Below are positions 3,680 to 63,954 of a stretch of 64,000 nucleotides of DNA, piece by piece. The number at the start of each line of letters is the position of its first letter. Positions within the stretch are counted from its first letter, which is position 1. The notes beneath the pieces were generated by a model. It did no database searches. It saw only the letters and a program-made list of their open reading frames with translations, and had not been told where the DNA came from. The position numbers and the translations under genes were made by a program. The stretch is taken from assembly GCA_036556585.1 (NCBI GenBank), contig DATBJG010000415.1:131-64130 (forward strand), given 5' to 3'. Source of the DNA: Vicinamibacterales bacterium. Its GTDB lineage: Bacteria; Acidobacteriota; Vicinamibacteria; Vicinamibacterales; JAMQPK01.

Positions 3680-3728
3680 CCGAACCCTGAATCCCGAACC
3701 CCGAATCCCGAACCCCGAATCCCGAGCC
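3680..3728. repeat. Tandem heptamer tract in the gyrB-dnaN spacer (ccgaacc ctgaatc ccgaacc ccgaatc ccgaacc ccgaatc ccgagcc)
   Basis: Read directly from the sequence: seven consecutive 7-nt units, equivalent to about 3.5 copies of a 14-nt unit. The tract ends one base before the dnaN stop codon. Confidence 0.85.
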
Positions 3729-3729
3729 C

Positions 3730-5015: not shown

Positions 5016-5107
5016 GGCCTGTTTCCGGGGGAGAAAAAACGGTGAAGAACCCGTTACCCACAGGGCATGAAGAGAACCGCAGTCACCCCTGTGCAAAAGT
5101 GAGATCT

Positions 5108-6460
5108 TCACCGAAAACTTTCGAGAAAATTGTTGATGAGCTTGTTGAAATCTCCATCCGTCTTCCGCATCGCGTTGACCTTCCGGATGGAGTGAATCAC
5201 GGTCGAATGATGCTTTCCCCCGAAGCTTCGCCCGATCTCAGGCAGGGACGCGTTCGTCAAGGTCTTGCAGAGATACATGGCAATCTGGCGCGGCGTGGCC
5301 ACCGACTTCGAATTGTTGCGCGACTTGAGTTCGGCCAGCTTGAGCTGGTAGTAGTCTGAGATGAATTTCTGGATCAGATCGATCGTCACCACCTTCTCTT
5401 CGTGATCCAGGACGTTCCGCAACACTTCCTGCGCGAGATCAATCGACAGTTCCTGGCCCGTGAGCGAAGCGTAAGCAATCAAGCGGATCAATGACCCTTC
5501 CAGCTCGCGAATGTTCGACTTGATGCGACCCGCGATGTAGATAGCGACGGCATCCGGCAGCGGAACGGCTTCGGCTTCTGCCTTTTTCTTGAGAATCGCA
5601 ATCTTCGTTTCCAGATCGGGCTGCTGGATGTCGGCAATCAAACCCCACTCGAATCGCGATCGCAGGCGTTCCTCGAGCTGGGGAATTTCGTGCGGAGGAC
5701 AATCGCTGCTGAGGACGATCTGCTTCTGCGAGTCGTACAGCGCGTTAAACGTATGGAAAAACTCGGTCTGCGTACCCTCTTTTCCGGCCATAAACTGCAC
5801 ATCGTCGACCAGCAGCACGTCCACGGTGCGATAGCGCTCGCGAAAATCAATCAGCCGATCGAATCTGACGGCGTTGATCATCTCGTTCATGAAACGTTCG
5901 AGCGAGATGTAGGTGAGCTTCTGGGCAGGCACGTGATGAAGAACGTACTGGCCGATCGCGTGCATGAGATGCGTCTTGCCCAGTCCCACACCACCGTAGA
6001 TGAAGAGAGGGTTGTAGGCTCGCGACGGCGTTTCGGCAACGGCGCGACATGCCGCGTGAGCGAACTGGTTTGACGGTCCAACGATAAACGTGTCGAAGGA
6101 GTATCGAGGGTTCAAACCTGAGGCCGGCGTCGAAGCAACCGATTCTTCAACGAGCGGGTCAATGACTGCAGCGTTGGTAGGTGGCCGCGGCGTTGATGGA
6201 GGCGCGATGGCTTCGCGTATTTCCGTCACGAACGCGATGTGCGCCTGAGGCCGGCGCGCCTCGAGTGCGGCCTCTGAGATCACCCCCGAATAGTGTTTCG
6301 TAATCCATTCCTTGAAGGAGGGATCCGGCACACGCACGGTCACGGTGGAGCCGTCATCAGAGATGAAGCTCGTTGCCTTGAACCAGGTGTAGAAACTGTG
6401 CCGGTTGATCTTGGTTTGAACGCGCGAGAGGATCTCGTCCCAGATATTGGTGCCGACCAT
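5108..6460 (-). CDS. dnaA: Chromosomal replication initiator DnaA
   Basis: The ORF runs 5108..6676, but the conserved DnaA N-terminus begins at an internal Met (MVGTNIWDEILSRVQTKINRHSFYTWF; ATG is the complement of 6458-6460). Motifs seen are Walker A GGVGLGKTHLMHAIG, Walker B LLVDDVQF and the C-terminal HTH IAMYLCKTLTNASLPEIGRSFGGKHHSTVIHSIRKV. Confidence 0.93.
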   Translation of the reverse strand: MVGTNIWDEILSRVQTKINRHSFYTWFKATSFISDDGSTVTVRVPDPSFKEWITKHYSGVISEAALEARRPQAHIAFVTEIREAIAPPSTPRPPTNAAVIDPLVEESVASTPASGLNPRYSFDTFIVGPSNQFAHAACRAVAETPSRAYNPLFIYGGVGLGKTHLMHAIGQYVLHHVPAQKLTYISLERFMNEMINAVRFDRLIDFRERYRTVDVLLVDDVQFMAGKEGTQTEFFHTFNALYDSQKQIVLSSDCPPHEIPQLEERLRSRFEWGLIADIQQPDLETKIAILKKKAEAEAVPLPDAVAIYIAGRIKSNIRELEGSLIRLIAYASLTGQELSIDLAQEVLRNVLDHEEKVVTIDLIQKFISDYYQLKLAELKSRNNSKSVATPRQIAMYLCKTLTNASLPEIGRSFGGKHHSTVIHSIRKVNAMRKTDGDFNKLINNFLESFR

Positions 6461-6619
6461 GGGATACCGAACTTTCGCCCTGCCGGAGCAGGTGTTTACT
6501 CGAGGGTGACGTTGATAACTGGCGAAAACCCGTGCTGGGTAAGGGATTCTGGGATTCGCCGGCCAAGAGAACCAAGGATTTCGGGGTTGAAACGACGACA
6601 GCACGCCTGAAAGCCCGGA

Positions 6620-6651
6620 ATTTCCACAGTTTTTTCCACAGGTGTGGAAAT
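6620..6651. promoter_or_regulatory. Cluster of three DnaA-box-like 9-mers
   Basis: The three sites are ATTTCCACA (6620-6628), TTTTCCACA (6632-6640) and the inverted TGTGGAAAT (6643-6651). They differ from TTATCCACA by 2, 1 and 2 positions respectively. The cluster lies 160-190 bp upstream of the dnaA start. Confidence 0.55.
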
Positions 6652-6840
6652 CTTGGGGAGGCGGCCCAACTGGCACCTACCTACTGTGCCGCAGGCTCCT
6701 GGCTGGCGGCGTGATCGAGGCTGGTACGCCCAACCACGGCCTGCCCGTTCGGCGGCTGAAAAGAGACCCGCGAATCTATCACAAATCGGCGAGCCTGTGA
6801 TAGAGAGGCGAGAGAGTCACACGCTCAGTCCGACCGCGGA

Positions 6841-6870
6841 TTGACACTGCCGAACGAGCGTCGCTAATAT
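6841..6870 (+). promoter_or_regulatory. Candidate sigma70-type promoter for rpmH
   Basis: TTGACA (6841-6846), an 18-nt spacer, then TAATAT (6865-6870). It sits about 58 nt upstream of the rpmH ATG. Confidence 0.4.
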
Positions 6871-6927
6871 TGACAGTTCCTACGTTTGAAGACGAACTCC
6901 AGAAGGCACGTCCCATAAGGCAAGTCA

Positions 6928-7068
6928 ATGAAGCGAACGTTTCAGCCAAACCGCAGCAGACGCAGCAAAACCCATGGATTTCTGGTCCGCATGAGCACGA
7001 AAAATGGTCGACTCGTGCTGAAGCGTCGCCGGGCGAAAGGCCGCAAGCGTCTGACAGTCTCAGACTAG
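6928..7068 (+). CDS. rpmH: 50S ribosomal protein L34
   Basis: Hand translation gives [46 protein letters not shown] (46 aa, stop TAG at 7066-7068). It falls below the ORF-track length cutoff. The position upstream of rnpA is the classic one. Confidence 0.92.
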
Positions 7069-7090
7069 ACATTCACCCGCGGACAATCCC

Positions 7091-9869: not shown

Positions 9870-11285
9870 ATGTTCTCCACCTCAGACACCATCGTTGCTA
9901 TTGCAACGCCGTCAGGACGAGGCGCGATGGGGGTCGTGCGCGTGAGCGGGCCCGCCGCCTGCCACGTCGCCGGGGCGATTCTGACGACCCGGCGAGCACT
10001 GACGCCGAGGCGCGCCACGTTCACTCGTGTGCGAAGAGCCTCCGACGACAGTTCGAACGGAAACCGAGACTCAAACGGCCGGGCCCTTTCTGATCAGGTG
10101 GTCGCGACCTACTTCCAGCACCCGGCCTCCTACACCGGCGAAGACGTCGTCGAGATCAGCGCGCATGGCAGCCCCGTGGTCCTGCACCAGATTCTCAAAG
10201 CCGCAATGGATGCCGGAGCCCGGCTGGCCGAACCCGGCGAGTTCACCTTGAGAGCGTTTCTCAACGGGAGGCTCGATCTCGTCCAGGCCGAGGCCGTCGC
10301 CGATCTGATTGAGGCCGTCACGCCCCTCCAGGCGCGCGTGGCATTCGATCAGCTCGAAGGCACGCTGACAGCCGAAATCGAGGCGATCGACACGCTGCTG
10401 TTCGACATGGTGGCGCGATTCGAGGCTTCGATTGATTTTCCGGAAGAGGGGTATCACTTCGTCGACCCCGAACGAACGATCGACGAGCTCGATGGGCTAC
10501 AAGGACGCATCGTGCGACTCCTTTCCGGTGCCCGCCGGGGACGCCTGATTCGCGAGGGAGCGCATGTCGTGATTGCAGGTCGATCCAACGTCGGCAAATC
10601 GAGTCTTTTCAATGCGCTGCTCGGGACGGGACGGGCGATTGTGACAGCGGTGCCGGGGACCACGCGTGATTTCGTGACCGAGGTGACCGATCTCCAAGGC
10701 GTGCGCGTTGCGCTGGTGGACACGGCTGGCGAGCGGGGAACGGTCGACCCGATTGAAGATGTGGAACGGGAAGGCATCGAGCGAGCCCGTCGGGCACGCG
10801 CGATCGCGCAACTGGTTCTCGTCGTGCTCGATCGTTCCCAAGAGCTGACTGACGTAGACAGACACCTGCTCGACGAAACGTCCGACATGCAACGGGTCAT
10901 CGTCGTGAACAAGATCGATCTGCCCGAGGCCTGGTGCTCCGATTCGCTGCAGGAGGTCAGTGAGTCGGTGGTTCCGATCTCCGTTCGAAGTGGGGAAGGG
11001 CTCGACCGGCTCAAGGCGAACGTAGTGGAGGCTCTTGGCGGCGGCGACGTCGAGCGCGACACAGCGGCTGTCACCAACATCCGTCACATCGAACTCCTGG
11101 AGCGCGCGCAGCAGGCGCTCAACCAGGCGAAGCAGGCCATCACCGACAGAGGGGGCCGGCTTTCAGAGGAATTCGTACTGGCCGACCTCCAAGCTGCGCG
11201 ACATGCGTTCGAGGAAATCACGGGCAAGAGGACGGCCGACGATGTGTTGGCGCACATCTTCGGGCGCTTTTGTATCGGGAAATAG
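9870..11285 (+). CDS. mnmE: tRNA modification GTPase MnmE
   Basis: 471-aa ORF with G1 [15 protein letters not shown]3 DTAG, G4 NKIDL and the C-terminal FCIGK motif. Confidence 0.93.
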
Positions 11286-11314
11286 AGCTCGGAATTCGGC
11301 TCTCGGATTTCAGA

Positions 11315-13180
11315 ATGAACCACTACGACGTCATAGTCGTTGGCGCGGGTCACGCAGGCTGTGAGGCGGCCTGGGCCGCGGCTCAGGTGGGCTGTCGCAC
11401 GGCAATCTGCACGTTGACGACCGACACCGTCGCTCACATGCCGTGCAATCCCGCCATTGGCGGCACGGCCAAAGGGCATCTCGTCGCAGAGATCGATGCG
11501 CTTGGGGGCTTGATGGGGCTGGCGATCGATGCGACGGGGATCCAGTTCAAACTGCTGAACCGCAGTCGAGGTCCGGCTGTGTGGTCACCTCGAGCCCAGG
11601 CCGACAAAAAAGCGTACGGCCGTTGGATGCGCGCCGTGCTCGAACGACACCCGAATATCTCCTGGATGCTCGGGAAGGTTGGTCGACTGTTGATCGAGCA
11701 TGGGCGCGTTGCCGGAATTGCACTCGAGGACGGGGATCGATATTCGTGCTCCTCGCTCGTCATTACAACCGGCACATTTCTGAATGGCCTGGTCCACGTT
11801 GGGCCGGAGCAGCGACCAGCCGGCCGCGGCGACGAACCGCCGTCGCGCGAACTTGCTGAATCGTTGAAATCGGTTGGCTTCGAGTGGGCACGCCTGAAGA
11901 CCGGCACGCCGCCTCGCCTTCATCGGCGGAGCATTGATTTTGCCAAGGGCGTGACACGCGGTCTGTTCGCGGAGGAGCCGGGAGACAATCCTCCGGTTCC
12001 GTTCTCGTTTCTGACGGGCCATCTCGAAGTGGCGCAGGTTCCGTGTTATCTCACGCACACGACCGAGCAGGTGCGTGACATTGTGTTACGGAACGTGAAC
12101 CGTTCGCCGCTCTTCAACGGGCAGATCCGCGGCATCGGACCGCGCTACTGTCCGTCGCTCGAAGACAAGATTGTCCGGTTTCCGGCTCGCGAGCGTCATC
12201 AAATCTACCTCGAGCCGGAAGGGCGGGATGCGGATGAGATTTACGTGAACGGCTTTTCCATGAGCCTTCCGCGCGACGTGCAGGCCGAGCTGGTTCGCGC
12301 GATTCCGGGGCTCGAGGATGCCGAGATCGTCCGCCATGCGTATGCCGTGGAGTACGACTTCATTCAGCCGACGGAGCTGAAAGCGACGCTTGAAACGAAG
12401 CGTGTGGCGGGGTTGTATCTGGCGGGTCAGATCAACGGGACGTCGGGGTACGAAGAAGCAGGCGGCCAGGGCTTGATTGCCGGGGTGAACGCCGGGCTTC
12501 GAGCGGTTGGGCGGAAGGCGCTGGTTCTAGGTCGTCAGGAATCGTACATAGGAGTTATGGTAGATGACCTAATAACGCGTGGGTGCCTGGAGCCGTACCG
12601 GATGTTCACGTCGCGCGCAGAGCATCGGCTGCTTCTTCGGTGTGATAACGCGGACCTTCGGCTGACGCGAGTTGGCAGGGAAGTCGGACTCGTGGACGAG
12701 GGCAGGTGGGATGCCTTCAACGCTCGCTTGGAGCGGTTCAATCGGAATCTCCAAACTCTGCGAAGTGCCACGGTTCGAACTCCGGAAGGGGAACGCGTCA
12801 AAGCGGATCACCTGCTGCGGCAGCAGAGCAGCAGGCTTGACCAGTTGTGCCAGGCGGGACTGGTGGGGCTCGAGACATCGACAGGCACGGCGCGTATCGA
12901 TCTGGCGAGTGTCGAAACCGCCATCAAGTACGAAGGGTATCTCCGACGCCAGGAGCGCGAGGTCAGTCGCTCGAAGAAGGAGGAGGCGAAGCTCATCCCG
13001 GAGTCATTTCAATTCGAGTCGGTCCCGGGTCTGTCGAACGAAGTCGTGCACAGACTGAGTCAGGTTCGGCCCGCGACTCTTGGACAGGCGTTAAGAATTC
13101 CAGGTATCACGCCGGCCGCCGTGGCGGTCATGTCGGCCTACCTCAGCAGGCGTCCCGTGGACTCACCGAAAGCAGTATGA
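11315..13180 (+). CDS. mnmG: tRNA uridine 5-carboxymethylaminomethyl modification enzyme MnmG (GidA)
   Basis: The track ORF starts at 11270, inside mnmE. The conserved N-terminus [19 protein letters not shown] starts at the ATG at 11315. FAD-binding motif present. The product is about 620 aa. Confidence 0.93.
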
Positions 13181-13914: not shown

Positions 13915-13930
13915 CGTTCCACGTGGAACA
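13915..13930. promoter_or_regulatory. parS centromere-like site
   Basis: CGTTCCACGTGGAACA (reverse complement TGTTCCACGTGGAACG), compared with the consensus TGTTNCACGTGAAACA. The 14-bp core GTTCCACGTGGAAC is a perfect palindrome. It lies 120 bp upstream of parA. Confidence 0.75.
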
Positions 13931-15718: not shown

Positions 15719-15779
15719 AAAAGGGGTCTGGAGTCTTTTCCAGGCGCAGGACGAGTGTAAAAGACTCCCGACCCCTTTT
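15719..15779. terminator. Long hairpin just after parB: 21-bp stem with one mismatch and a 19-nt loop, A-tract before and T-tract after
   Basis: aaaaggggtctggagtctttt (15719-15739) pairs with aaaagactcccgacccctttt (15759-15779). The right arm is identical over 23 nt to the hairpin at 23394-23455. An alternative smaller hairpin is possible: cctggaaaag (15714-15723) with cttttccagg (15735-15744). Confidence 0.6.
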
Positions 15780-15868
15780 TCAGGCCGGAACTCTCGAAAG
15801 ATGACGAAATCGCACGGTAATTCACAACGAGATTCGGTTGTCCCGGCTGGACGCCACCGGGAACCGAA

Positions 15869-16653: not shown

Positions 16654-18186
16654 ATGACAAGTATGGATATCAAAGCCGACGAAATCTCCAAGATCATCAA
16701 AGACCAGATTGGAAGCTTCACCGTAGAGGTCGATGTTGCCGAGGTCGGCACGATCATGTCGCTGGGTGACGGCATCGCGCGCGTGCACGGCGTCGAGCGT
16801 GCGATGGCTGGCGAGATGCTGTCCTTCCCTCACGACGTGTTCGGAATCGCGCTCAATCTCGAAGAGGATGGCGTCGGCGTCGTGCTGCTGGGCGAATTCT
16901 CGAACATCAAGGAGGGCGACGAGGTGAGGCGCACCGGCCGAATCATCTCGGTGCCTGTTGGTGACGAGATGCTCGGCCGCGTCGTCAACGCGCTCGGTCA
17001 GCCGATCGACGGCAAAGGCCCCATCGCGACCAAGCAGTTTGCTCCGATCGAACGTCTGGCGCCGGGCGTCGTGGATCGACAGCCGGTTCGGGAACCCCTG
17101 CAGACCGGTCTCAAGGCGATCGATGCGATGGTCCCCATCGGCCGTGGTCAGCGCGAACTGATCATCGGGGATCGCCAGACGGGCAAGACTGCTGTGGCCA
17201 TCGACACCATCATCAATCAGAAGGGGCAGGACGTCGTCTGTATTTACAACGCGATTGGCCAAAAGCAGTCGACGATCGCGCAGGTGATCAAGACGCTCGA
17301 AGACAGCGGAGCAATGGGGTACAGCATTGTTGTGGCTGCCGCCGCTTCGGACCCGGCACCCCTGCTGTACATCAGTCCGTACTCAGCTTGCGCCATTGGT
17401 GAGTACTTCCGTGACAACGGCCGCCATGCGTTGTGCATCTACGACGATTTGTCAAAGCACGCGCAGGCGTATCGTGAGATTTCGCTGTTGCTGCGGCGTC
17501 CGCCTGGCCGCGAAGCGTATCCCGGCGATGTGTTCTATCTGCACTCGCGATTGCTCGAGCGTGCGGCCAAAATGCGGCAGGAGCTCGGCGGAGGATCGCT
17601 CACGTCGCTGCCGATCATCGAAACGCAGGCGGGCGACTTATCCGCCTACATTCCCACCAACGTCATTTCGATTACCGACGGCCAGATCTTTCTCGAAACG
17701 GATTTGTTCCATCAGGGTGTGCGCCCCGCAATCAACGTCGGCAACTCGGTTTCGCGGGTAGGCGGGTCGGCCCAGGTCAAAGCCATGCGACAGGTGGCCG
17801 GCACGCTACGACTGGATCTTGCGCAGTATCGTGAGCTGGCCGCGTTCGCGCAGTTTGGTAGCGATCTCGATCCAGCCACGAAGGCGCAGCTCAACCGCGG
17901 GGCTCGTTTGGTGGAACTTCTCAAACAGCCGCAGTATCAGCCTCTTGCTGTCGAGAAGCAGGTGCTCATCGTCTACGCGGGCACGAACGGGTTCCTCGAT
18001 AACGTCGCGATTGCTGCCGTGGGGCGATACGAACAGGAGCTCTACCGATTCGTGGAAACACGGTATGCCGGAGTCCTCAAGGGGATTGCCGACAAGAAGA
18101 CGCTCGACGATGGTCTGAAAGCGGAAATTAACGCGGCGCTCAAGGAGTTCGGAGAGCAGTTTGCGGCAACGGCCGCTGCCGCGTAG
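16654..18186 (+). CDS. atpA: F1 ATP synthase subunit alpha
   Basis: 510-aa ORF with the P-loop [18 protein letters not shown]. Conserved throughout. An alternative ATG lies at 16663. Confidence 0.96.
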
Positions 18187-18190
18187 AAGA

Positions 18191-18274
18191 CAGACGACAG
18201 AAGACAGAGACCGAAAGCCAAAAACCGGGATCCGAAGCCCGAGAGCCGAGAGCCGAAATCCGAAAGCCGAAGAA
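18191..18274. repeat. Twelve consecutive degenerate heptamers filling the atpA-atpG spacer
   Basis: The tract parses as cagacga cagaaga cagagac cgaaagc caaaaac cgggatc cgaagcc cgagagc cgagagc cgaaatc cgaaagc cgaagaa. Every unit starts with C and the 7-nt phase is unbroken. Confidence 0.85.
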
Positions 18275-18277
18275 ACA

Positions 18278-19156
18278 ATGCCTTCACTCATTGACATCCG
18301 CCGGCGGATTCGTGCGGTCAAGTCGACGCAGCAGATCACGAAGGCGATGAAGATGGTGGCCGCGTCACGACTTCGCCGTGCGCAGGAACGGATCATGAGC
18401 GCGCGCCCGTTCGCGCAGCAGATGCTGCGCGTGCTCAATCGTGTGGCGGCCCGCGTGCCGTCCGCCGCGCATCCGCTGCTGGCGGCTGCCGGCAGCGAGA
18501 CGACACCAGGACGCACATTGCTGGTGGTTGTGACCGCGGACCGGGGTCTGTGCGGGAGCTTCAATACCAACATCATCAAGGAGGCGGGGAAGTTCATCGT
18601 CGATGCGCCGGGACGCGAGATCGCGCTGGGACTCGTTGGGCGAAAAGGCCGCGACTATTTTCGCCGCCACGGGTTCGAAGTCCGGTTCGAGGACGTGGGC
18701 GTATTCCAGAACGTGTCCTACTCGCACGCTCAAGCCATCGCCCGCGCCGCCATTGAGGATTTCACGAGCGGTGACGTCAAGAGCGTCTATCTCGTTTACA
18801 ACGAATTCAAATCGGTCATTCAACAACGCGTCGTCGTCGAACGCCTGCTGCCGATTCCACGTGGCGAGGTTCTGACCGACTCCGCGCCGGACGCGCTGGA
18901 AGTCGAGTATCTGTTCGAACCGACGCCGGCCGAGATTTTCCGCGATCTCCTGCCGCGTCACGTTGAAGTGCAGGTCTTCCGGGCGCTCCTCGAATCGGCT
19001 GCAGCCGAGCACGCGGCGCGCATGACGGCCATGGACGCGGCAACCAAGAACTCGGCGGAAATGATCGAGCAGCTGACTCTGTACATGAACAAGGTGCGTC
19101 AAGCGGCCATCACGCGGGAAATTATCGAGGTTGTTTCGGGGGCGCAAGCTCTGTAA
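18278..19156 (+). CDS. atpG: F1 ATP synthase subunit gamma
   Basis: The track ORF starts at 18161, but the canonical N-terminus MPSLIDIRRRIRAVKSTQQITKAMKMVAASRL starts at the ATG at 18278. The C-terminal ITREIIEVVSGAQAL is typical. Confidence 0.93.
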   Translation: MPSLIDIRRRIRAVKSTQQITKAMKMVAASRLRRAQERIMSARPFAQQMLRVLNRVAARVPSAAHPLLAAAGSETTPGRTLLVVVTADRGLCGSFNTNIIKEAGKFIVDAPGREIALGLVGRKGRDYFRRHGFEVRFEDVGVFQNVSYSHAQAIARAAIEDFTSGDVKSVYLVYNEFKSVIQQRVVVERLLPIPRGEVLTDSAPDALEVEYLFEPTPAEIFRDLLPRHVEVQVFRALLESAAAEHAARMTAMDAATKNSAEMIEQLTLYMNKVRQAAITREIIEVVSGAQAL

Positions 19157-20650
<1,494 letters not shown>

Positions 20651-21105: not shown

Positions 21106-21147
21106 AGAAGACAGAAGACAGAATACAGAAGACAGAATACGAAGTCG
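21106..21147. repeat. Six tandem heptamers (agaagac agaagac agaatac agaagac agaatac gaagtcg) directly upstream of the wzm start
   Basis: Read directly from the sequence. These belong to the same heptamer family as the first units of the 18191-18274 tract. Confidence 0.85.
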
Positions 21148-21149
21148 GA

Positions 21150-21938
21150 ATGCTCCAGAATCTCCTGCGCCTCGCGCGATACCGCGCGCTCATCCAGAGC
21201 CTGGTTGCGCGTGAAGTCAAAGCCCGATATCGAGGATCCGTCCTAGGGTTCTTCTGGTCCTTCATCAACCCGCTGCTCCTTCTGCTGATCTACACGTTTG
21301 TGTTCAGCTACGTGCTGCCGCGCGGGCCGGGGCTCGAGCCCTATGCCCTGTTCATGTTCTGCGGCATCCTGCCATGGACCTGGTTCTCTTCTTCGCTGGC
21401 CGAGTCGGCCAACGTCCTGATGGCCGGCGGGAACCTGATCAAGAAGGTGCTCTTCCCGGCCGAAGTCCTGCCCATCGTGACCGTGCTGGCAAATCTGGTT
21501 CATTTCCTGTTTGGCCTGCCGATCCTTGTGGTCTTCCTCGTCTACTATCGGCCGGCGCTCCAGCTTGGTGACCTGGTGTGGTTCCCGGTGGTGGTGCTGG
21601 TTCAGCTGCTTCTCACGCTCGGTTTCGCGCTGATCCTGTCGGCGCTCACGGTGCATTTCCGCGATCTCAAAGACATCCTCTCGAACCTTCTCACATTCTG
21701 GTTTTTTGCGACGCCCATCATCTATCCGATGTCCGAGGCGCCGGCAGGCGCCCGCTTGCTGCTCAACCTGAATCCGTTCACACACCTTGCGATCTCGTAT
21801 CAGGAGCTTCTGTTCTACGATGGACCTTTTGGCCACTGGAAGTGGCTGGTGGCACTGGGAATTGCGTCGGCAGGGCTGTTTCTGTTTGGATATTTCGTCT
21901 TCGACCGGCTGCGCGATTCGTTTGCGGAGGAAGTGTGA
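21150..21938 (+). CDS. wzm: ABC-2 type polysaccharide/O-antigen export permease (Wzm/TagG-like), copy 1
   Basis: 262-aa ORF with the typical N-terminus YRALIQSLVAREVKARYRGSVLGFFWSFINPLL, six predicted TM segments, and an adjacent cognate ATPase. Confidence 0.85.
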   Translation: MLQNLLRLARYRALIQSLVAREVKARYRGSVLGFFWSFINPLLLLLIYTFVFSYVLPRGPGLEPYALFMFCGILPWTWFSSSLAESANVLMAGGNLIKKVLFPAEVLPIVTVLANLVHFLFGLPILVVFLVYYRPALQLGDLVWFPVVVLVQLLLTLGFALILSALTVHFRDLKDILSNLLTFWFFATPIIYPMSEAPAGARLLLNLNPFTHLAISYQELLFYDGPFGHWKWLVALGIASAGLFLFGYFVFDRLRDSFAEEV

Positions 21939-22029
21939 AACGACAGCCGGCAGCAGCCAGCAGGTCGCAGCTGGGCGAGAGCTCAACCGTCCTGCCGTCT
22001 GTCGTGTGCCGTCTGCTTGCTAGAGCCGT

Positions 22030-23393: not shown

Positions 23394-23455
23394 AAAAAGG
23401 GGTCGGGAGTCTTTTTTGTCCAAGAGTCAGCAAAAAAGACTCCCGACCCCTTTTT
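23394..23455. terminator. Perfect 24-bp inverted repeat hairpin (14-nt loop) directly after wzt, bidirectional intrinsic-terminator-like
   Basis: aaaaaggggtcgggagtctttttt (23394-23417) is the exact reverse complement of aaaaaagactcccgaccccttttt (23432-23455). It starts 3 nt after the wzt stop codon. Confidence 0.7.
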
Positions 23456-23476
23456 CGTTTTCGTGGAGTCATTGCC

Positions 23477-29134: not shown

Positions 29135-29181
29135 CTGGTGGTCGGCGGTCAGTGGCCAGATAACTGATAACCTGGAACCCC

Positions 29182-37548: not shown

Positions 37549-39073
37549 AGCCCGCGCGTTGTTCAGAAACGTGGGGAGTCGTGCCGTTCTGTTGCCACAC
37601 TCCCAAGACGTGGCGACAGGTGTCGACGGCACGACATGGGCGCGCGAAGCTCGACTCGGGCCCAAGCGCCAGGAGATCGTCTTTGGCCATGCCGTCCTTT
37701 GTGCGGATGCGCTCGTTCTGATGGCAAGCTTTCTCATCGCGTACATGGTTAGAGACGGGCTCGTGTGGTATGGCGGCCTGCTTCCGCTGCAATCCCATGT
37801 GTGGGTGATTGGATTGATTCTTCCAATCTGGCTCATCCTCGCGCAGGTCATGGGCCTCACTGACTCCACCACATACTTGCGGTCTCGACCTCCCCTCGTG
37901 CAAACGCTCAAGGTGCACGCAATCTCCGGGCTGTTGCTGTTGAGTGCGCTGTACCTGCTCAGAGCGACCGACGTCAGCCGATTGTTCATGCAGACGTTTC
38001 TCGTCATTGGCGGTGGAGTTTTCATGCTCGAGCGCATCGCCATCCGCGCCACACTGGGGCACCTTGGCAGGCATCGCCCAGGCCATGCGCGGCGCGTGCT
38101 CATCATCGGCACCACGCCGGAGGCCGCACGACTGCATCGGTTGCTCGGGCGTCGGCCGCATTGGGGCGCTGAAATCGTGGGGTTTGTCACAGCCGGCTCG
38201 GCGCCGCTCAACCACTTCTCGGGGCTCCCGGTGATGGGGAACGTCGACGATTTCGAATCGGTGCTCGAAGAACACGTCCTGGACGAGGTGGTGCTGGCCG
38301 ATGGCAGCCTCGATCCGCAGAGTGTCGAACAACTGGCGCAAACCTGCGTTGAGCGCGGGTTGACATTCGATGCGCTCGTCCGGATGCCCACCATGACCCC
38401 GGCTCGACATCATGCAGAGATGCTTGGCGAAGGTCTCTACCTCATGTCGCTCGAAACGGCCCCACAGAACCCGGGCATGCTCTTCATCAAGCGCGCCATT
38501 GACGTGGTGGGGGCCTGCGCGGGCCTGGTCCTGTTGACGCTGGCGTTCGTGATCGTGGCGCCACTCGTTCGGCTCGAGTCACGAGGACCGGTCATCTTTC
38601 GACAGCGGCGCATTGGCAGGAACGGCCGGTACTTCGCGCTTTACAAGTTCCGCACCATGAGAAGTGATGCCGCGTCCCAGAAGGCGCAGCTGACCGACGC
38701 CAATGAAATGCGCGGCCATCTTTTCAAGATTCGTAACGATCCTCGCGTCACTCTGGTGGGCCGATTCCTGCGGAAGACGTATTTCGATGAGCTGCCGCAG
38801 TTCTGGAACGTGCTCAAGGGCGACATGAGCCTGGTCGGCACGCGACCGCCAACGCCAGATGAAGTTGCCCGCTATTCACCCCATCACCGCCGGCGGTTGA
38901 GTGTGCGCCCCGGGATGACCGGCCTCTGGCAGATCGCGGGGAATGGGCGTGTCCGCGACTTCGAAGAAGTCGTTCGTCTGGATTGCGACTACATCGAGCG
39001 ATGGTCGATCTGGCTCGACCTTTCCATCCTGATGCGGACCTGTCTCACAGTTGCACGGCTGGGCGGCCACTAG
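37514..39073 (+). CDS. Polyprenyl-phosphate hexose-1-phosphate transferase (WbaP/EPS sugar transferase family), initiating enzyme
   Basis: 519 aa with N-terminal TM segments. The C-terminal bacterial sugar transferase domain shows FALYKFRTM, DELPQFWNVLKGDMSLVGTRPP and PGMTGLWQI. The exact start is uncertain: ATG 37514 overlaps wzc by 35 nt, and an in-frame GTG lies at 37532. Confidence 0.85.
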   Translation: MRGITSVPPQPEARALFRNVGSRAVLLPHSQDVATGVDGTTWAREARLGPKRQEIVFGHAVLCADALVLMASFLIAYMVRDGLVWYGGLLPLQSHVWVIGLILPIWLILAQVMGLTDSTTYLRSRPPLVQTLKVHAISGLLLLSALYLLRATDVSRLFMQTFLVIGGGVFMLERIAIRATLGHLGRHRPGHARRVLIIGTTPEAARLHRLLGRRPHWGAEIVGFVTAGSAPLNHFSGLPVMGNVDDFESVLEEHVLDEVVLADGSLDPQSVEQLAQTCVERGLTFDALVRMPTMTPARHHAEMLGEGLYLMSLETAPQNPGMLFIKRAIDVVGACAGLVLLTLAFVIVAPLVRLESRGPVIFRQRRIGRNGRYFALYKFRTMRSDAASQKAQLTDANEMRGHLFKIRNDPRVTLVGRFLRKTYFDELPQFWNVLKGDMSLVGTRPPTPDEVARYSPHHRRRLSVRPGMTGLWQIAGNGRVRDFEEVVRLDCDYIERWSIWLDLSILMRTCLTVARLGGH

Positions 39074-39158
39074 GTCGGATTTCGGAGCTGGGCTTTCGGC
39101 TCTCGAGTCGCAACAGCCCAGGATCAGAGATCACGTAGCCGAAAGGCGAAAGCCGAAT
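39074..39158. repeat. Intergenic heptamer-family repeat block with its two halves in opposite orientation
   Basis: gtcggat ttcggag ctgggct ttcggct ctcgagt ... agccgaa aggcgaa agccgaa. The left half is in TCGG orientation and the right half in CCGA orientation. Confidence 0.55.
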
Positions 39159-40304
39159 TTGCGCATAACGTTTCTAACGGGAAGTCTCGAGCAAGGGAAG
39201 GATGGTGTCGGCGACTATACGCGTCTGCTCGCGCACGAATGCGCGAGCCGTGGCGTGGCCTCGCAGGTCATTGCGCTGGCCGATCGGTATGCCTCTCACC
39301 CGGAATCCGATTCTTCCGCGACATCCCTCGAGACACTGCGTCTTGGCTACCGGTCGCCGTGGTTTGCACGTCTGGCAAGTGCCGGATCCAGGATTCGCCG
39401 GTGGTCACCGCACTGGGTCAGCCTGCAGTTTGTGCCGTACAGCTTTCACCGCTGGGGCATTGCCACGCGGCTCGTCAATGGGATGTCGGAATTGGCAGGG
39501 CCGGCAAAGCTTCACGCGATGCTTCACGAAATCTGGACCGGCGGCTCTTCGTGGCCTCAACGGGTGATCGGCGCCAGTCAGCGGCACTGTGTTCTGAAGC
39601 TGTGCCGACAGGCAGGCGCGGTCGTCCATACCAGTAATGAAACCTACCAACGGATACTCGCGGAACACGCCGTGAATGCGCGGGTGTTGCCGCTTTTTGG
39701 CAGCCTGCCCATCGCGGACTCGGATGCAGACGCCTGGTTGCCGGCGGCGCTGGTTGAGGCGGGATTTGGAGATGTCACGGCCAACAGACAGTACTGGTGG
39801 CTGGTTGCGATCTTCGGCACCCTCCATCCAGTCTGGCAGCCCGAGCCGCTCATGCAACGGCTTCGGGCCGCCGCCGAAGCTTCTGGAAAGCGCGTGGCCC
39901 TCATTTCGATTGGGAGGCTTGGTCCCGGCGAGGATCTCTGGCGCGACATGCAGCGCAACTATGCCGCTCAGATGCCGATGCTGCGACTGGGAGAACAACC
40001 GGACACACGGATCTCTCAGCTGCTGAACAGCGTCGACTTCGGCATTGCGACGAGCCCGTACTCGCTCATCGGCAAAAGCGCGACGATTGCGGCAATGCTG
40101 GAGCACGGCGTTCCTGTGATCGTCAATCGTGAAGACGGCCCAGCGGCCAGCCCTCACGATCGGGATCAGAACAGCTACATTCGGATGGATCACCGTTTTG
40201 AAGATCGGCTGGCACAGGCTCGCCGCGGGCCGCGTCGCCGGCGTCTGTCCGACGTGGCGGATCAGTTTCTCGCGGACCTGACATGGGCGGCCAACGCCTG
40301 CTGA
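39159..40304 (+). CDS. Putative GT-B fold glycosyltransferase
   Basis: The reading frame is open from 39051, but the upstream part is repeat DNA. A TTG at 39159 gives LRITFLTGSLEQGKDGVGDYTRLLA, a typical GT-B N-terminus. The C-terminal half is also GT-B-like (VDFGIATSPYSLIGKSATIAAMLEHGVPVIV). Confidence 0.5.
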   Translation: MRITFLTGSLEQGKDGVGDYTRLLAHECASRGVASQVIALADRYASHPESDSSATSLETLRLGYRSPWFARLASAGSRIRRWSPHWVSLQFVPYSFHRWGIATRLVNGMSELAGPAKLHAMLHEIWTGGSSWPQRVIGASQRHCVLKLCRQAGAVVHTSNETYQRILAEHAVNARVLPLFGSLPIADSDADAWLPAALVEAGFGDVTANRQYWWLVAIFGTLHPVWQPEPLMQRLRAAAEASGKRVALISIGRLGPGEDLWRDMQRNYAAQMPMLRLGEQPDTRISQLLNSVDFGIATSPYSLIGKSATIAAMLEHGVPVIVNREDGPAASPHDRDQNSYIRMDHRFEDRLAQARRGPRRRRLSDVADQFLADLTWAANAC

Positions 40305-62751: not shown

Positions 62752-62812
62752 TGTCTCGGGGCTCGGATTTGGGCTCTCGGCTCTCGCGGCTTCATTTGTC
62801 GAGGCTCGGATT

Positions 62813-63166
62813 TCAAGGTGTGCGCTTCTTCGAACGCTGCCGACGCGCGAATTTCTTGCGACGCTCGGCCCGACTCAGCTGGAACCTGGCGCGAGGGTCT
62901 TGGTGATTCCCTCCAGGTCGCCAGTCCGAGCCTCGCGCCTCAGTCGATCGACGCTTCCGGGTTTGCGCTTCAATGGCCGCCTCTGGTGAGTCCCAGATTC
63001 TGCCGCGCGCAAACCATTTCATTTCAGCCGTTGGATTCGTGCGCCGGAGCTGCACGAGCGTTGGCAGCAGGTCGGCCTGCTGGCGTGCGCGGAACGCAGT
63101 GGCCTGACCGTCAATCAGGATCGTCCAGTAAGTGAATCTGGGGGGCATTGGTTCGGCTCTCGGCAA
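62813..63166 (-). CDS. Hypothetical protein with a highly basic C-terminus
   Basis: 117-aa ORF (or start at Met7: MPPRFTYWTILIDGQATAFRA). It is flanked on both sides by heptamer-family repeats. I recognise no domain. Confidence 0.5.
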   Translation of the reverse strand: MPRAEPMPPRFTYWTILIDGQATAFRARQQADLLPTLVQLRRTNPTAEMKWFARGRIWDSPEAAIEAQTRKRRSTEARGSDWRPGGNHQDPRARFQLSRAERRKKFARRQRSKKRTP

Positions 63167-63373
63167 TTGGCTCTCGGACCGTCAACTTTCAACTCCTCGG
63201 ATTTCGCCGAGTTCCGAGAGCTGAAATCCGAGTTCCGCTTTGGATTATTCATCGGCACCCGACGAACCGCAATGATGCCGCTGCTCGCGATCTGGCCACT
63301 CTGGTCTAGAAGCTGTCTCATAAATACGGAAGCCGCGTGAAACATCGGTAGGATCGCCGTCGTACTCGACGGC

Positions 63374-63563: not shown

Positions 63564-63611
63564 TTGACACTATACTACGTTTACAGTAATACTACGCTAA
63601 CAGTATTACTG
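63564..63611 (+). promoter_or_regulatory. Candidate padR promoter with overlapping 10-bp inverted repeat operator
   Basis: TTGACA (63564-63569), a 17-nt spacer, then TAATAC (63587-63592). The inverted repeat is CAGTAATACT (63584-63593), 8 nt, AGTATTACTG (63602-63611). The ATG follows at 63622 after GAGGA. Confidence 0.4.
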
Positions 63612-63621
63612 AGGACGGAGT

Positions 63622-63954
63622 ATGGCACGCCGTGATGACGTTGCGGATCTCGAGGAGTTCGGCCGGTTCGGTGAGCCGGCACTGCTGATCCTCGTCAGCC
63701 TCGCCGACGGTCCCAAGCACGGCTACGCGATCACCGAAGACATCGCGTCCTTCGCAGGCGTGCGCTTCGGGCCAGGATCGCTCTACGGCGCGATCGCCAG
63801 GCTCGAATCGCGTGGCCTGATCGAGGGGCTGGACACGGAGGACCGGCGCAATCCCTACCAGCTCACCGCGGTCGGTGCGAAAGCGCTGCGCGCGCGGCTC
63901 GCCAGCATACAGTCAGTGGCGAAGGTCGGCCAGAGGCGGCTGGCGAAGGCGTGA
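63622..63954 (+). CDS. PadR family transcriptional regulator
   Basis: 110 aa with a winged-helix signature: LLILVSLADGPKHGYAITEDI...GPGSLYGAIARLESRGLIE. Confidence 0.88.
   Translation: MARRDDVADLEEFGRFGEPALLILVSLADGPKHGYAITEDIASFAGVRFGPGSLYGAIARLESRGLIEGLDTEDRRNPYQLTAVGAKALRARLASIQSVAKVGQRRLAKA

Follow-up and report, generated by a model that had tools for sequence, protein, structure and literature searches.

Heptanucleotide tandem repeats in the intergenic spacers of a Vicinamibacterales (Acidobacteriota) genome and their whole-unit variation among soil strains

Introduction

Tandem repeats with a seven-nucleotide unit are familiar from heterocystous cyanobacteria (Calothrix, Nostoc, Anabaena), whose short tandemly repeated repetitive (STRR) sequences are built of the heptamers CCCCAGT, TTGGTCA and CAACAGT (STRR1 to STRR3). 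We report here on comparable heptads in 64,000 nucleotides of a Vicinamibacterales bacterium of the phylum Acidobacteriota (assembly GCA_036556585.1, contig DATBJG010000415.1, positions 131 to 64,130; "the window" below means this whole stretch). An examination of the letters of the window alone, called the sequence-only reading below, had noticed runs of 7-nt units in the spacer between atpA and atpG and in seven other spacers, and had likened them to STRR sequences. Our analysis indicates that these arrays are probably heptanucleotide long simple-sequence repeats (LSSRs), that is, microsatellites or variable-number tandem repeats (VNTRs) of the cyanobacterial STRR kind, which are tolerated only in transcribed spacers.

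Heptanucleotide repeats are, according to the accounts of Mrazek (2007) given in PMC4679880 and PMC4692102, the most abundant class of LSSR in many prokaryotes, and the first of these accounts gives polymerase slippage as the origin proposed for them. Rehm et al. (2015; PMC4692102) described GGGAATC in Xanthomonas and GGGGAYT in Nostoc as intergenic repeats that form inverted pairs and vary between close relatives; they are under-represented between divergent genes, their intergenic positions are common to related species, and no function was found for them. TAACTGA repeats lie directly 5' of gene starts in Beggiatoaceae, Cyanobacteria and Bacteroidetes (MacGregor 2015; PMC4679880), and GATAGRA heptamer repeats occur in Chloroflexus (PMC6749651). 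Heptamer repeats outside the cyanobacteria have thus been described already, and the suggestion of the sequence-only reading that no equivalent was known for this kind of genome stands for Acidobacteriota, in which the literature searched yielded no description of heptamer or other tandem repeats.

The arrays in the window resemble LSSRs, as far as these are characterized in the accounts just cited, in being the dominant tandem class with a period that is not a multiple of three, in their bias to non-coding DNA and in their rapid change of length; they differ in showing whole-unit polymorphism in natural populations, a unit anatomy of five constant and two variable positions, and a recurrent module of three units. 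Like STRR sequences they are families of tandem heptamers dispersed between genes, few per genome and in both orientations, and the tests described below support the analogy as one of dispersed, solely intergenic heptamer tandem repeats; they differ in that the host phylum is not cyanobacterial and that the three STRR units are not found in tandem in the window. The arrays thus share all the generic features of known heptamer repeats and none of their specific unit sequences. What is new is the phylum, the unit families and the unusually direct population evidence of whole-unit variation; the kind of repeat itself is already known. Why a 7-nt unit should be so frequent in bacterial tandem repeats is an old unanswered question, for which this lineage is a clean natural system, with many arrays beside single-copy housekeeping genes, whole-unit alleles in soil populations, unit families across the phylum and many hairpins.

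Results and Discussion

Seven-nucleotide periodicity in non-coding DNA

The spacer between atpA (stop codon TAG, 18184-18186) and atpG (ATG at 18278) occupies positions 18187-18277, and its 91 nt are 13 phased units of 7 nt. The twelve heptads that the sequence-only reading had listed at 18191-18274 match the sequence exactly, and its claim that the whole spacer is made of such units is correct. Phased heptads are present in all seven of the further spacers it had named, and three arrays that it overlooked lie at 19160-19181, 21940-22019 and 29137-29175.

The gene map of the window is a crude one, made with a self-trained codon model, in which the relevant genes were verified with Pfam. In the 4.1 kb of non-coding DNA that it leaves, the match between positions 7 nt apart is 0.309, as against 0.262 in shuffled sequence (z=6.6); lags 14 (z=6.8) and 21 (z=3.1) are likewise raised, and all the remaining lags from 1 to 30 lie within |z| 2.6. 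Coding DNA has a period-3 signal only, its lag-7 match of 0.255 being background. Period 7 is thus enriched in non-coding DNA over shuffles and is at background in coding DNA, as the sequence-only reading had implied. A strict detector that demands at least 17 matches in 21 positions is positive at lags 7 and 14 alone, and in non-coding DNA alone. Tandem Repeats Finder (TRF) calls period-7 repeats at 3680-3729, 18185-18208, 18211-18271, 21106-21144, 39137-39157 and 62754-62786. The pattern CCGANNNCCGA has 23 matches in the window as against 5.95 +/- 2.6 in dinucleotide shuffles, and chains of at least three units with a CCGA core number 10 as against 0.55, nine of the ten being non-coding. The sole chain inside a gene is a three-unit chance match in atpD (20051-20071), and the earlier impression that the heptads stay outside coding regions therefore holds. 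About 10 of the 29 spacers of at least 20 nt contain a significant heptad run, and the arrays of the window, with at least three head-to-tail 7-nt units above chance expectation, fall within the definition of LSSRs.

Whole-unit variation among soil strains

We compared the window with 25 soil-metagenome contigs of the Joint Genome Institute (JGI) that are 98.4-99.97% identical to it and that were found through identical AtpG, AtpC, DnaN and Dabb proteins. The sequence-only reading had suggested that unit numbers be compared between strains, and this comparison reveals polymorphism by whole units. There are seven distinct indel alleles of at least 5 nt (7, 7, 7, 7, 14, 14 and 21 nt), all of them in register inside arrays; apart from these there are just indels of 1 or 4 nt, and array-free spacers are constant in length. 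Since every indel of at least 5 nt is a multiple of 7 inside an array, we regard the arrays as probably slippage-driven variable-number repeats; VNTRs that change by strand slippage or unequal exchange leave just such a pattern.

The atpA-atpG spacer, which has 91 nt in the window and also, judged from gene coordinates alone, in one further contig, is 84 nt long in three contigs and 112 nt in one. The differences are of one CCGAGAG unit (present once or twice beside an identical AtpG) and of three AGAAGAC units, in register; strain L082, with 21 additional nt, has six AGAAGAC units. The array between atpG and atpD has three or four GGTGCNN units among strains, the dnaN-gyrB alleles have 5, 6, 7, 7, 7 and 9 units with a 14-nt double unit moving as a block, and one additional CCGAGAG unit is present at 63150-63241 in three contigs (L094, L096 and L100). 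The array at 62753-62812 shows just a 1-nt indel in a run of A, that at 21106-21144 has an unchanged length in seven strain contigs, and that at 21940-22019 is unchanged among strains. The arrays are usable as VNTR strain-typing markers for uncultured Vicinamibacterales. They also likely cause errors of assembly and of gene-start assignment: the longest open reading frame (ORF) of atpG begins at a TTG (18161) and reads through the array, and the real start is the ATG at 18278, where the sequence MPSL is conserved in relatives.

Arrays in related genomes

The genomes closest to the window are Vicinamibacterales, the best of them (locus L001) with an AtpG 92% identical. Coding DNA of L001 is about 80% identical to that of the window; its atpA-atpG spacer carries a different heptad (GAAGTCT/CAAGTCT), its atpG-atpD spacer has about 11 copies of GGTGCNN, of which the window has three, together with four (N)AACTGA units (10951-10977) directly before the atpD ATG, and its atpC-wzm spacer has heptad remnants only. 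No CCGAR array is present in 20 kb of orthologous L001 DNA. Turnover of the arrays between species is fast.

For a broader comparison we used the window and 80 related loci, mostly acidobacterial, with a total of 1.42 Mb. Non-coding tandem arrays of three or more copies number 103, and 82 of them have period 7; a stricter cut-off leaves 51, of which 45 have it. Another 19 period-7 arrays were scored as coding, most of them at mis-called ends of genes. By crude gene calls, divergent spacers contain 2 arrays in 30 kb, co-directional spacers 67 in 104 kb and convergent spacers 7 in 18 kb, and divergent spacers thus have about 10-fold fewer arrays per kb. The arrays are no closer to gene starts than to stops (median distances 39 and 35 nt).

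Of the 78 atpA-atpG spacers compared, about 50 do not exceed 35 nt and some have 0 nt; spacers of only 0-6 nt are found in relatives other than L001. About 14 of the roughly 25 spacers with 40 nt or more reach a lag-7 match of 0.43 or higher, and long atpA-atpG spacers are therefore mostly heptads. The units differ from relative to relative (CCCAACN, ATTGCGG, CCCCGAG, CAGAAGA, AGTGATG and others), and the spacers that bear them belong to Vicinamibacterales, Blastocatellia/Pyrinomonadaceae, Terriglobia and one Nitrospirota. The repeats are spread across the phylum. Within a genome, one or a few units are reused at several sites, as are AATTCAG in L009, AGTAGAA in L053 and AGTGATG in L041. In L009, a member of the Vicinamibacteraceae, inverted AATTCAG arrays also flank a tandem repeat of about 58-116 nt, GCAGAACCAGCATCGTGAATCGTGAATTG...GCCGCGGACCCCGATCC..., at 5100-5545. 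In the atpC-wzm spacer of L014 (about 12918-13015) there is an inverted pair of 8-nt units, ATTGCAGN ... CCTGCAAT, and period 7 is for this reason to be called dominant and not exclusive.

Inverted pairs make up about one quarter of the arrays across the loci. In other Acidobacteriota they form long, near-perfect hairpins of -40 to -60 kcal/mol with stems of 30-45 bp, as at 12846-12933, 13028-13108 and 18613-18751 in L053, 9907-9992 and 14465-14544 in L041, 1488-1570 and 3838-3929 in L020, and 2593-2693 in L010. The same arm always comes first within a genome, and several such hairpins lie in the atpA-atpG spacer. Hairpins of L010, L002 and L073 have 5-6 paired and 1-2 unpaired bases per heptad. 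Variant units mirrored between the two arms, as might be expected of arm-to-arm templating, were not significant in relatives, in a test that had no power.

Unit families and a recurrent module

According to the sequence-only reading the heptads form one family, CCGA(A/G) followed by two variable bases. Such a family does dominate the window: its unit, C-C-G-A-R-(A>T,C)-(G/T/C), has a 5-nt core and two variable positions and occurs 46 times at nine non-coding sites. The idea of a single family had to be abandoned, since several others coexist with it, namely AGAAGAC (18185-18208 and 21106-21144), GGTGCNN, GNCAGCN/CTGYCGT and a small GGYGGTC/TAACTGA-like one; the units at 21106-21147 and the first three of the atpA-atpG spacer are indeed heptads, of the AGAAGAC and not the CCGAR family. 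Single-linkage clustering of the unit sequences chained all of them together and gave no grouping. Arrays lie in both orientations relative to transcription, as had been noted earlier, and we saw no orientation bias of the CCGAR arrays in the window, relative either to transcription or to the origin of replication. At three sites (1030-1119, 39072-39159 and 63150-63241) CCGAR units form inverted pairs, in which the YTCGG-type arm precedes the CCGAR-type arm.

A 19-nt module of three units, CCGAGAG-CCGAAAT-CCGAG, is present at six sites with unrelated flanks; at up to three mismatches the window has 7 overlapping matches, with 0.05 expected. CCGAR arrays are also found in five of the related loci (L002, L008, L013, L017 and L020). 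The exact module (CCGAGAG-CCGAAWT-CCGAG) is present in 28 metagenome contigs (L107-L133), of which about seven are chance matches in coding-like DNA and about 20 have further CCGAR heptads around the module; their GC content is 0.44-0.63, they often have several arrays per contig, and arrays reach 19 units (L132 and L123). A metagenome scan anchored on the end of atpA plus the start of the array gave no match.

These recurrences raise the question of whether CCGAR is a dispersed sequence-specific element, either a mobile module like the repetitive extragenic palindromic (REP) sequences that is copied by a dedicated enzyme, or an array of sites for a DNA- or RNA-binding protein that recognizes a 5-nt core every 7 nt, with slippage only modulating the number of copies. 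A conserved core followed by two variable positions in 46 units, a module at six sites with unrelated flanks, and the return of both elsewhere, among other Vicinamibacterales and among some 20 diverse metagenome contigs, are what such an element would produce, as are the wide reuse of one unit in other genomes (AATTCAG, AGTAGAA and AGTGATG, above) and the hairpins of L010 and L002 with five paired and two unpaired bases per heptad. We consider it quite unlikely, however, as no termini, loops or flanks are conserved, L001, the closest relative, is without CCGAR arrays in its orthologous 20 kb, a single genome has several unit families unrelated to one another, neither an enzyme nor a binding protein came up as a candidate, and about 7 of the 28 metagenome matches are due to chance. 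The arrays do resemble REP sequences and the composite elements made of them (bacterial interspersed mosaic elements, BIMEs, and REPINs, REP doublets forming hairpins) in being short, dispersed, intergenic and often hairpin-forming and in filling operon spacers; they differ in having no fixed palindromic unit and no conserved loop, and 7-nt periodicity and whole-unit indels are not features of REP sequences. REP sequences are imperfect palindromes of 20-40 nt with a GTAG or CGTC tag, and no such tag lies beside the window arrays, except for an incidental GTAG at 39135.

A slippage origin and observations that weigh against it

Given that whole-unit indels fall in register, we infer that the arrays arise by replication slippage. 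Slipped-strand mispairing, possibly together with unequal or ectopic recombination, would make the arrays grow, shrink and become homogeneous by one to three units at a time. Within a gene, a change in unit number would cause a frameshift, 7 not being a multiple of three, and arrays would therefore survive in non-coding DNA alone; selection would also purge them from divergent spacers, which bear promoters. What remains would accumulate in transcribed co-directional spacers such as gyrB-gyrA, dnaN-gyrB, mnmE-mnmG, those of the series atpA-atpG-atpD-atpC-wzm-wzt, and others. Each genome would come to have a few dominant unit families, here CCGAR with two variable bases, and multi-unit modules at unrelated sites may have been spread by template switching or ectopic conversion between arrays and not have arisen independently. 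Single arrays would be nearly neutral and without a sequence-specific function, any effects on spacer length or RNA structure being by-products. We see no sign of a specific function, as orientation bias, an Rfam family, folding of single-orientation arrays beyond that due to base composition and an excess of terminators are all lacking.

Several observations weigh against so simple an origin. One core, CCGAR, is common to nine unrelated sites and one module to six sites, for which local slippage alone is insufficient. Both core and module recur in other Vicinamibacterales (L002, L013, L017 and L020) as well as some 20 metagenome contigs, which may point to a sequence-specific process or to selection, and the occupation of the atpA-atpG position in many lineages by different units could reflect selection for a spacer there. 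If the two arms slipped independently, it is not obvious that the long, near-perfect hairpins formed by inverted arrays would stay paired. The slippage view leaves unexplained why the unit is of 7 nt rather than 5, 8 or 10, and any reason for it is conjectural. The cross-locus statistics, moreover, depend on gene calls from a crude home-made caller.

It might be supposed that the heptads are not passive microsatellites but the product or the target of a conserved sequence-specific system of Acidobacteriota and other soil bacteria, in which a factor reads a 5-nt core every 7 nt. This could be either an RNA-binding or RNase III-type pathway that acts on operon spacers and sets the ratios between cistrons, or a copying enzyme that seeds the CCGAGAG-CCGAAAT module and builds the inverted-array hairpins. 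We hold such a system to be unlikely; if real, it would account for the persistence of families across lineages despite the turnover of individual arrays.

The array between dnaN and gyrB and G-quadruplexes

At 3680-3729, in the dnaN-gyrB spacer, seven plus-strand units alternate between CCGAACC and CCGAATC and so form a period-14 super-unit (TRF score 86, 94% matches at period 14). The sense (minus) strand accordingly reads GGGATTC/GGGGTTC and contains a canonical G-quadruplex (G4) motif with seven G-tracts and loops of 3-4 nt. Six of the nine starts of G4 motifs in the window come from this array; the other three are isolated matches. Like the Xanthomonas and Nostoc repeats, the arrays studied here are intergenic, include inverted pairs, are shared by position with variable length and sequence and are rare between divergent genes, and the dnaN-gyrB array shares their G-tract unit type. 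They differ in that the majority of the units here, not being G-rich, are incapable of forming a G4, and in that there is no preference for four units.

The proposal that the heptads are G4-forming regulatory repeats, like GGGAATC and GGGGAYT, would draw on this one array, the main canonical G4 cluster of the window with a unit type as in Rehm et al. (2015). At least four G3 tracts with short loops are found on the minus strand of 3680-3729 alone, and units of the CCGARAG, AGAAGAC and GGTGCNN types are unable to form a G4; in addition, Rehm et al. found no regulatory role for their repeats (PMC4692102). As an account of the arrays in general we regard it as very improbable.

Arrays beside gene starts

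Several arrays run almost into the gene that follows. The atpA-atpG spacer consists of two plus-strand sub-arrays, both called by TRF: about 3.4 copies of AGAAGAC at 18185-18208, which start inside the atpA stop codon, and nine CCGARNN units at 18211-18273, which end 4 nt before the atpG ATG. This start has no Shine-Dalgarno (SD) sequence (anti-SD duplex -1.0 kcal/mol). In the mnmE-mnmG spacer (11286-11313, minus orientation) four CCGAR units, CTGAAAT CCGAGAG CCGAATT CCGAGCT, with a lag-7 match of 0.64 (p=0.006), reach to 1 nt before the mnmG ATG at 11315 and include the module with one mismatch. The atpC-wzm array (21106-21144, plus) has 5.5 copies of AGAAGAC/AGAATAC in a period-14 super-unit, is found by both TRF and the strict detector, and ends 5 nt before the wzm ATG at 21150; its unit family is also present in L020 and L029. 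Upstream of a Dabb-domain gene on the minus strand (identified by Pfam), the array at 62753-62812 (minus; TRF) has the CCGAR units GCGAGAG CCGAGAG CCCAAAT CCGAGCC CCGAGAC, ends 2 nt before the ATG and contains the module with one mismatch. Finally, 5' of an ORF of 111 amino acids on the minus strand, whose start is that of the JGI call, CCGAR chains lie in both orientations (63150-63177 minus, 63207-63241 plus), with CTCGGATTTC...GAAATCCGAG inverted. Arrays thus come within 0-5 nt of the starts of atpG, wzm, mnmG, the Dabb gene and the 111-amino-acid ORF, all of which lack an SD sequence. The array between atpG and atpD (19160-19181, plus; p<0.002), with the three units GGTGCTG GGTGCAT GGTGCCC, is followed by a T-run, a GAGGAG SD sequence and the atpD ATG at 19199.

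An anti-SD duplex of -4.4 kcal/mol or stronger is present at just 37% of 57 crudely called gene starts in the window, and about 63% are without an SD sequence. SD usage in this genome thus appears low. The heptad-rich phyla Cyanobacteria and Bacteroidetes are also low in SD usage. Because the genome relies little on SD sequences, arrays can be tolerated right up to the starts; the absence of SD sequences from these starts does not in itself demonstrate a function.

TAACTGA repeats lie a few nt 5' of starts without a canonical ribosome-binding site, as do the arrays beside atpG, wzm, mnmG, the Dabb gene and the 111-amino-acid ORF, although across the related loci arrays are no nearer to starts than to stops and about 63% of genes are without an SD sequence in any case. 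TAACTGA repeats are alike in occurring in operons that include essential genes, and in that one family spans distant lineages; they differ in unit, and in that the arrays studied here have both orientations and several coexisting families. No exact tandem TAACTGA is present in the window. There is one imperfect pair, TAACTGA TAACCTG, at 29161-29174 before the dus ATG, which together with the fourfold (N)AACTGA before atpD in L001 makes up the near matches to this family. The pair belongs to the array in the spacer between a nusG-like gene and dus (29137-29175, plus), which also has the units GGTGGTC GGCGGTC AGTGGCC (lag-7 match 0.57, p<0.002).

RNA structure and possible roles in expression

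As RNA, arrays in a single orientation are almost free of structure, and composition-matched shuffles are equally so (z about 0). The atpA-atpG spacer folds with -7.5 kcal/mol per 91 nt, the same as shuffles, and the atpC-wzm array with -1.0 kcal/mol for 65 nt. Inverted arrays of the window fold modestly (z 0.2 to -2.6). The gyrB-gyrA spacer (1030-1119; p=0.006 in the lag-7 spacer test) holds a degenerate inverted CCGAR-family pair, with a YTCGG-type arm on the plus strand at about 1053-1075, a CCGAR chain at 1089-1116 (ACGAGAT CCGGGAG CCGAATT CCGAGAC) and the module at 1096-1114 with two mismatches, and its fold does not surpass that of shuffles (z=-0.55). The same is true of the inverted pair in the wzm-wzt spacer (21940-22019; lag-7 match 0.50, p=0.004; fold z=0.22), whose arms are ACGACAG CCGGCAG CAGCCAG CAGGTCG (21940-21967) and CTGCCGT CTGTCGT GTGCCGT CTGCTTG (21992-22019). 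Between a sugar transferase gene and a GT4 glycosyltransferase gene, the inverted CCGAR pair at 39072-39159 (TRF, p<0.002), with five units read on the minus strand (39072-39106) and three on the plus strand (39139-39159), makes a moderate hairpin of -31.3 kcal/mol (z=-2.1), and the hairpin at 63150-63241 has z=-2.4. On the basis of these folds, a structured-RNA reading of the window arrays was rejected.

An Rfam covariance-model scan of the whole window gave no match at gathering score, and terminator-like and promoter-like sites in the window are at chance level; a weak hairpin with a T-run at 19168-19182 is the sole terminator-like match that overlaps an array. No conservation of loops, termini or flanks was seen among the arrays examined. 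Explanations of the arrays as CRISPR, as tRNA-related or as coding sequence were also rejected, as the units are contiguous, without unique spacers, and have no long-ORF support.

The arrays might nevertheless act in cis as RNA elements of polycistronic mRNAs, with unit number tuning expression as it does for the (ATCTTTC)n array in the 5' untranslated region (UTR) of hmw1A of H. influenzae. Single-orientation arrays would then be structure-free leaders without an SD sequence that set re-initiation or S1-dependent translation, for example by keeping the gamma subunit of the atp operon low compared with alpha and beta, and inverted arrays would be long hairpins that are processed by RNase III or stabilize the transcript. 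Such roles would fit the near confinement of arrays to transcribed co-directional spacers with their 10-fold depletion per kb in divergent ones, the arrays 0-5 nt from starts lacking an SD sequence, the repeated occupation of atpA-atpG in different lineages and the stems of 30-45 bp in relatives. There are also precedents, since the hmw1A 5'-UTR heptamer hairpin is cleaved by RNase III and its repeat-number change needs transcription (PMC12721329), and TAACTGA repeats lie directly 5' of starts with few ribosome-binding sites (PMC4679880). On the other hand, sense RNA shows both array orientations, one unit sequence has taken the place of another between close relatives, many relatives lack a spacer altogether, and the lack of structure is that of composition-matched shuffles, with only modest folding of the inverted arrays in the window. 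The similar distances to starts and stops, the absence of SD sequences from about 63% of genes regardless of arrays, and the non-significant test of mirrored units in hairpin arms likewise fail to favour an RNA role, which we think possible, if rather improbable.

The hmw1A array (PMC12721329) is similar to those described here in being transcribed, in consisting of heptamers able to fold into a long hairpin and in varying in unit number within populations; it differs in belonging to a single adhesin locus, those of the window being at many loci beside housekeeping genes. The window arrays do not resemble phase-variation contingency loci, their flanking genes being gyrA, gyrB, dnaN, mnmG, atp genes, wzm, wzt and dus. 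With its low SD usage, this lineage makes it testable whether spacer repeats tune the translation of operons.

Gene content and other features of the region

By its gene content and GC skew the window is the replication-origin region of the chromosome. In the Pfam-checked map, the minus strand carries gyrA, gyrB, dnaN and dnaA, and the plus strand rnpA/yidC-type genes, mnmE, mnmG, rsmG, parA, parB, atpH, atpA, atpG, atpD and atpC, followed by wzm, wzt and polysaccharide genes. The cumulative GC skew has its minimum at about 4-8 kb. Between the dnaA side and the plus-strand genes there is a gene-free gap of 630 nt (6461-7090) with a sigma-70-like promoter match at 6841-6870; DnaA boxes of the E. 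coli type are not enriched in the window.

A parS-like palindrome, CGTTCCACGTGGAACA, lies 5' of parA at 13915-13930, where none is expected by chance, and is kept in L001 as ATGTTCCACGTGGAACAT. A long, near-perfect palindrome, AAAAAGGGGTCGGGAGTCTTTTTT...AAAAAAGACTCCCGACCCCTTTTT, at 23399-23462, 3' of wzt, has the look of an intrinsic terminator that works in both directions; L001 contains a half-site related to it, and near 15766-15790 there is a copy in inverted orientation. Finally, the 17-nt direct repeat ATACTACGCTAACAGTA occurs 2.3 times at 63572-63610, directly 5' of the gene for a PadR-family regulator (63622-63954), and is possibly its operator.

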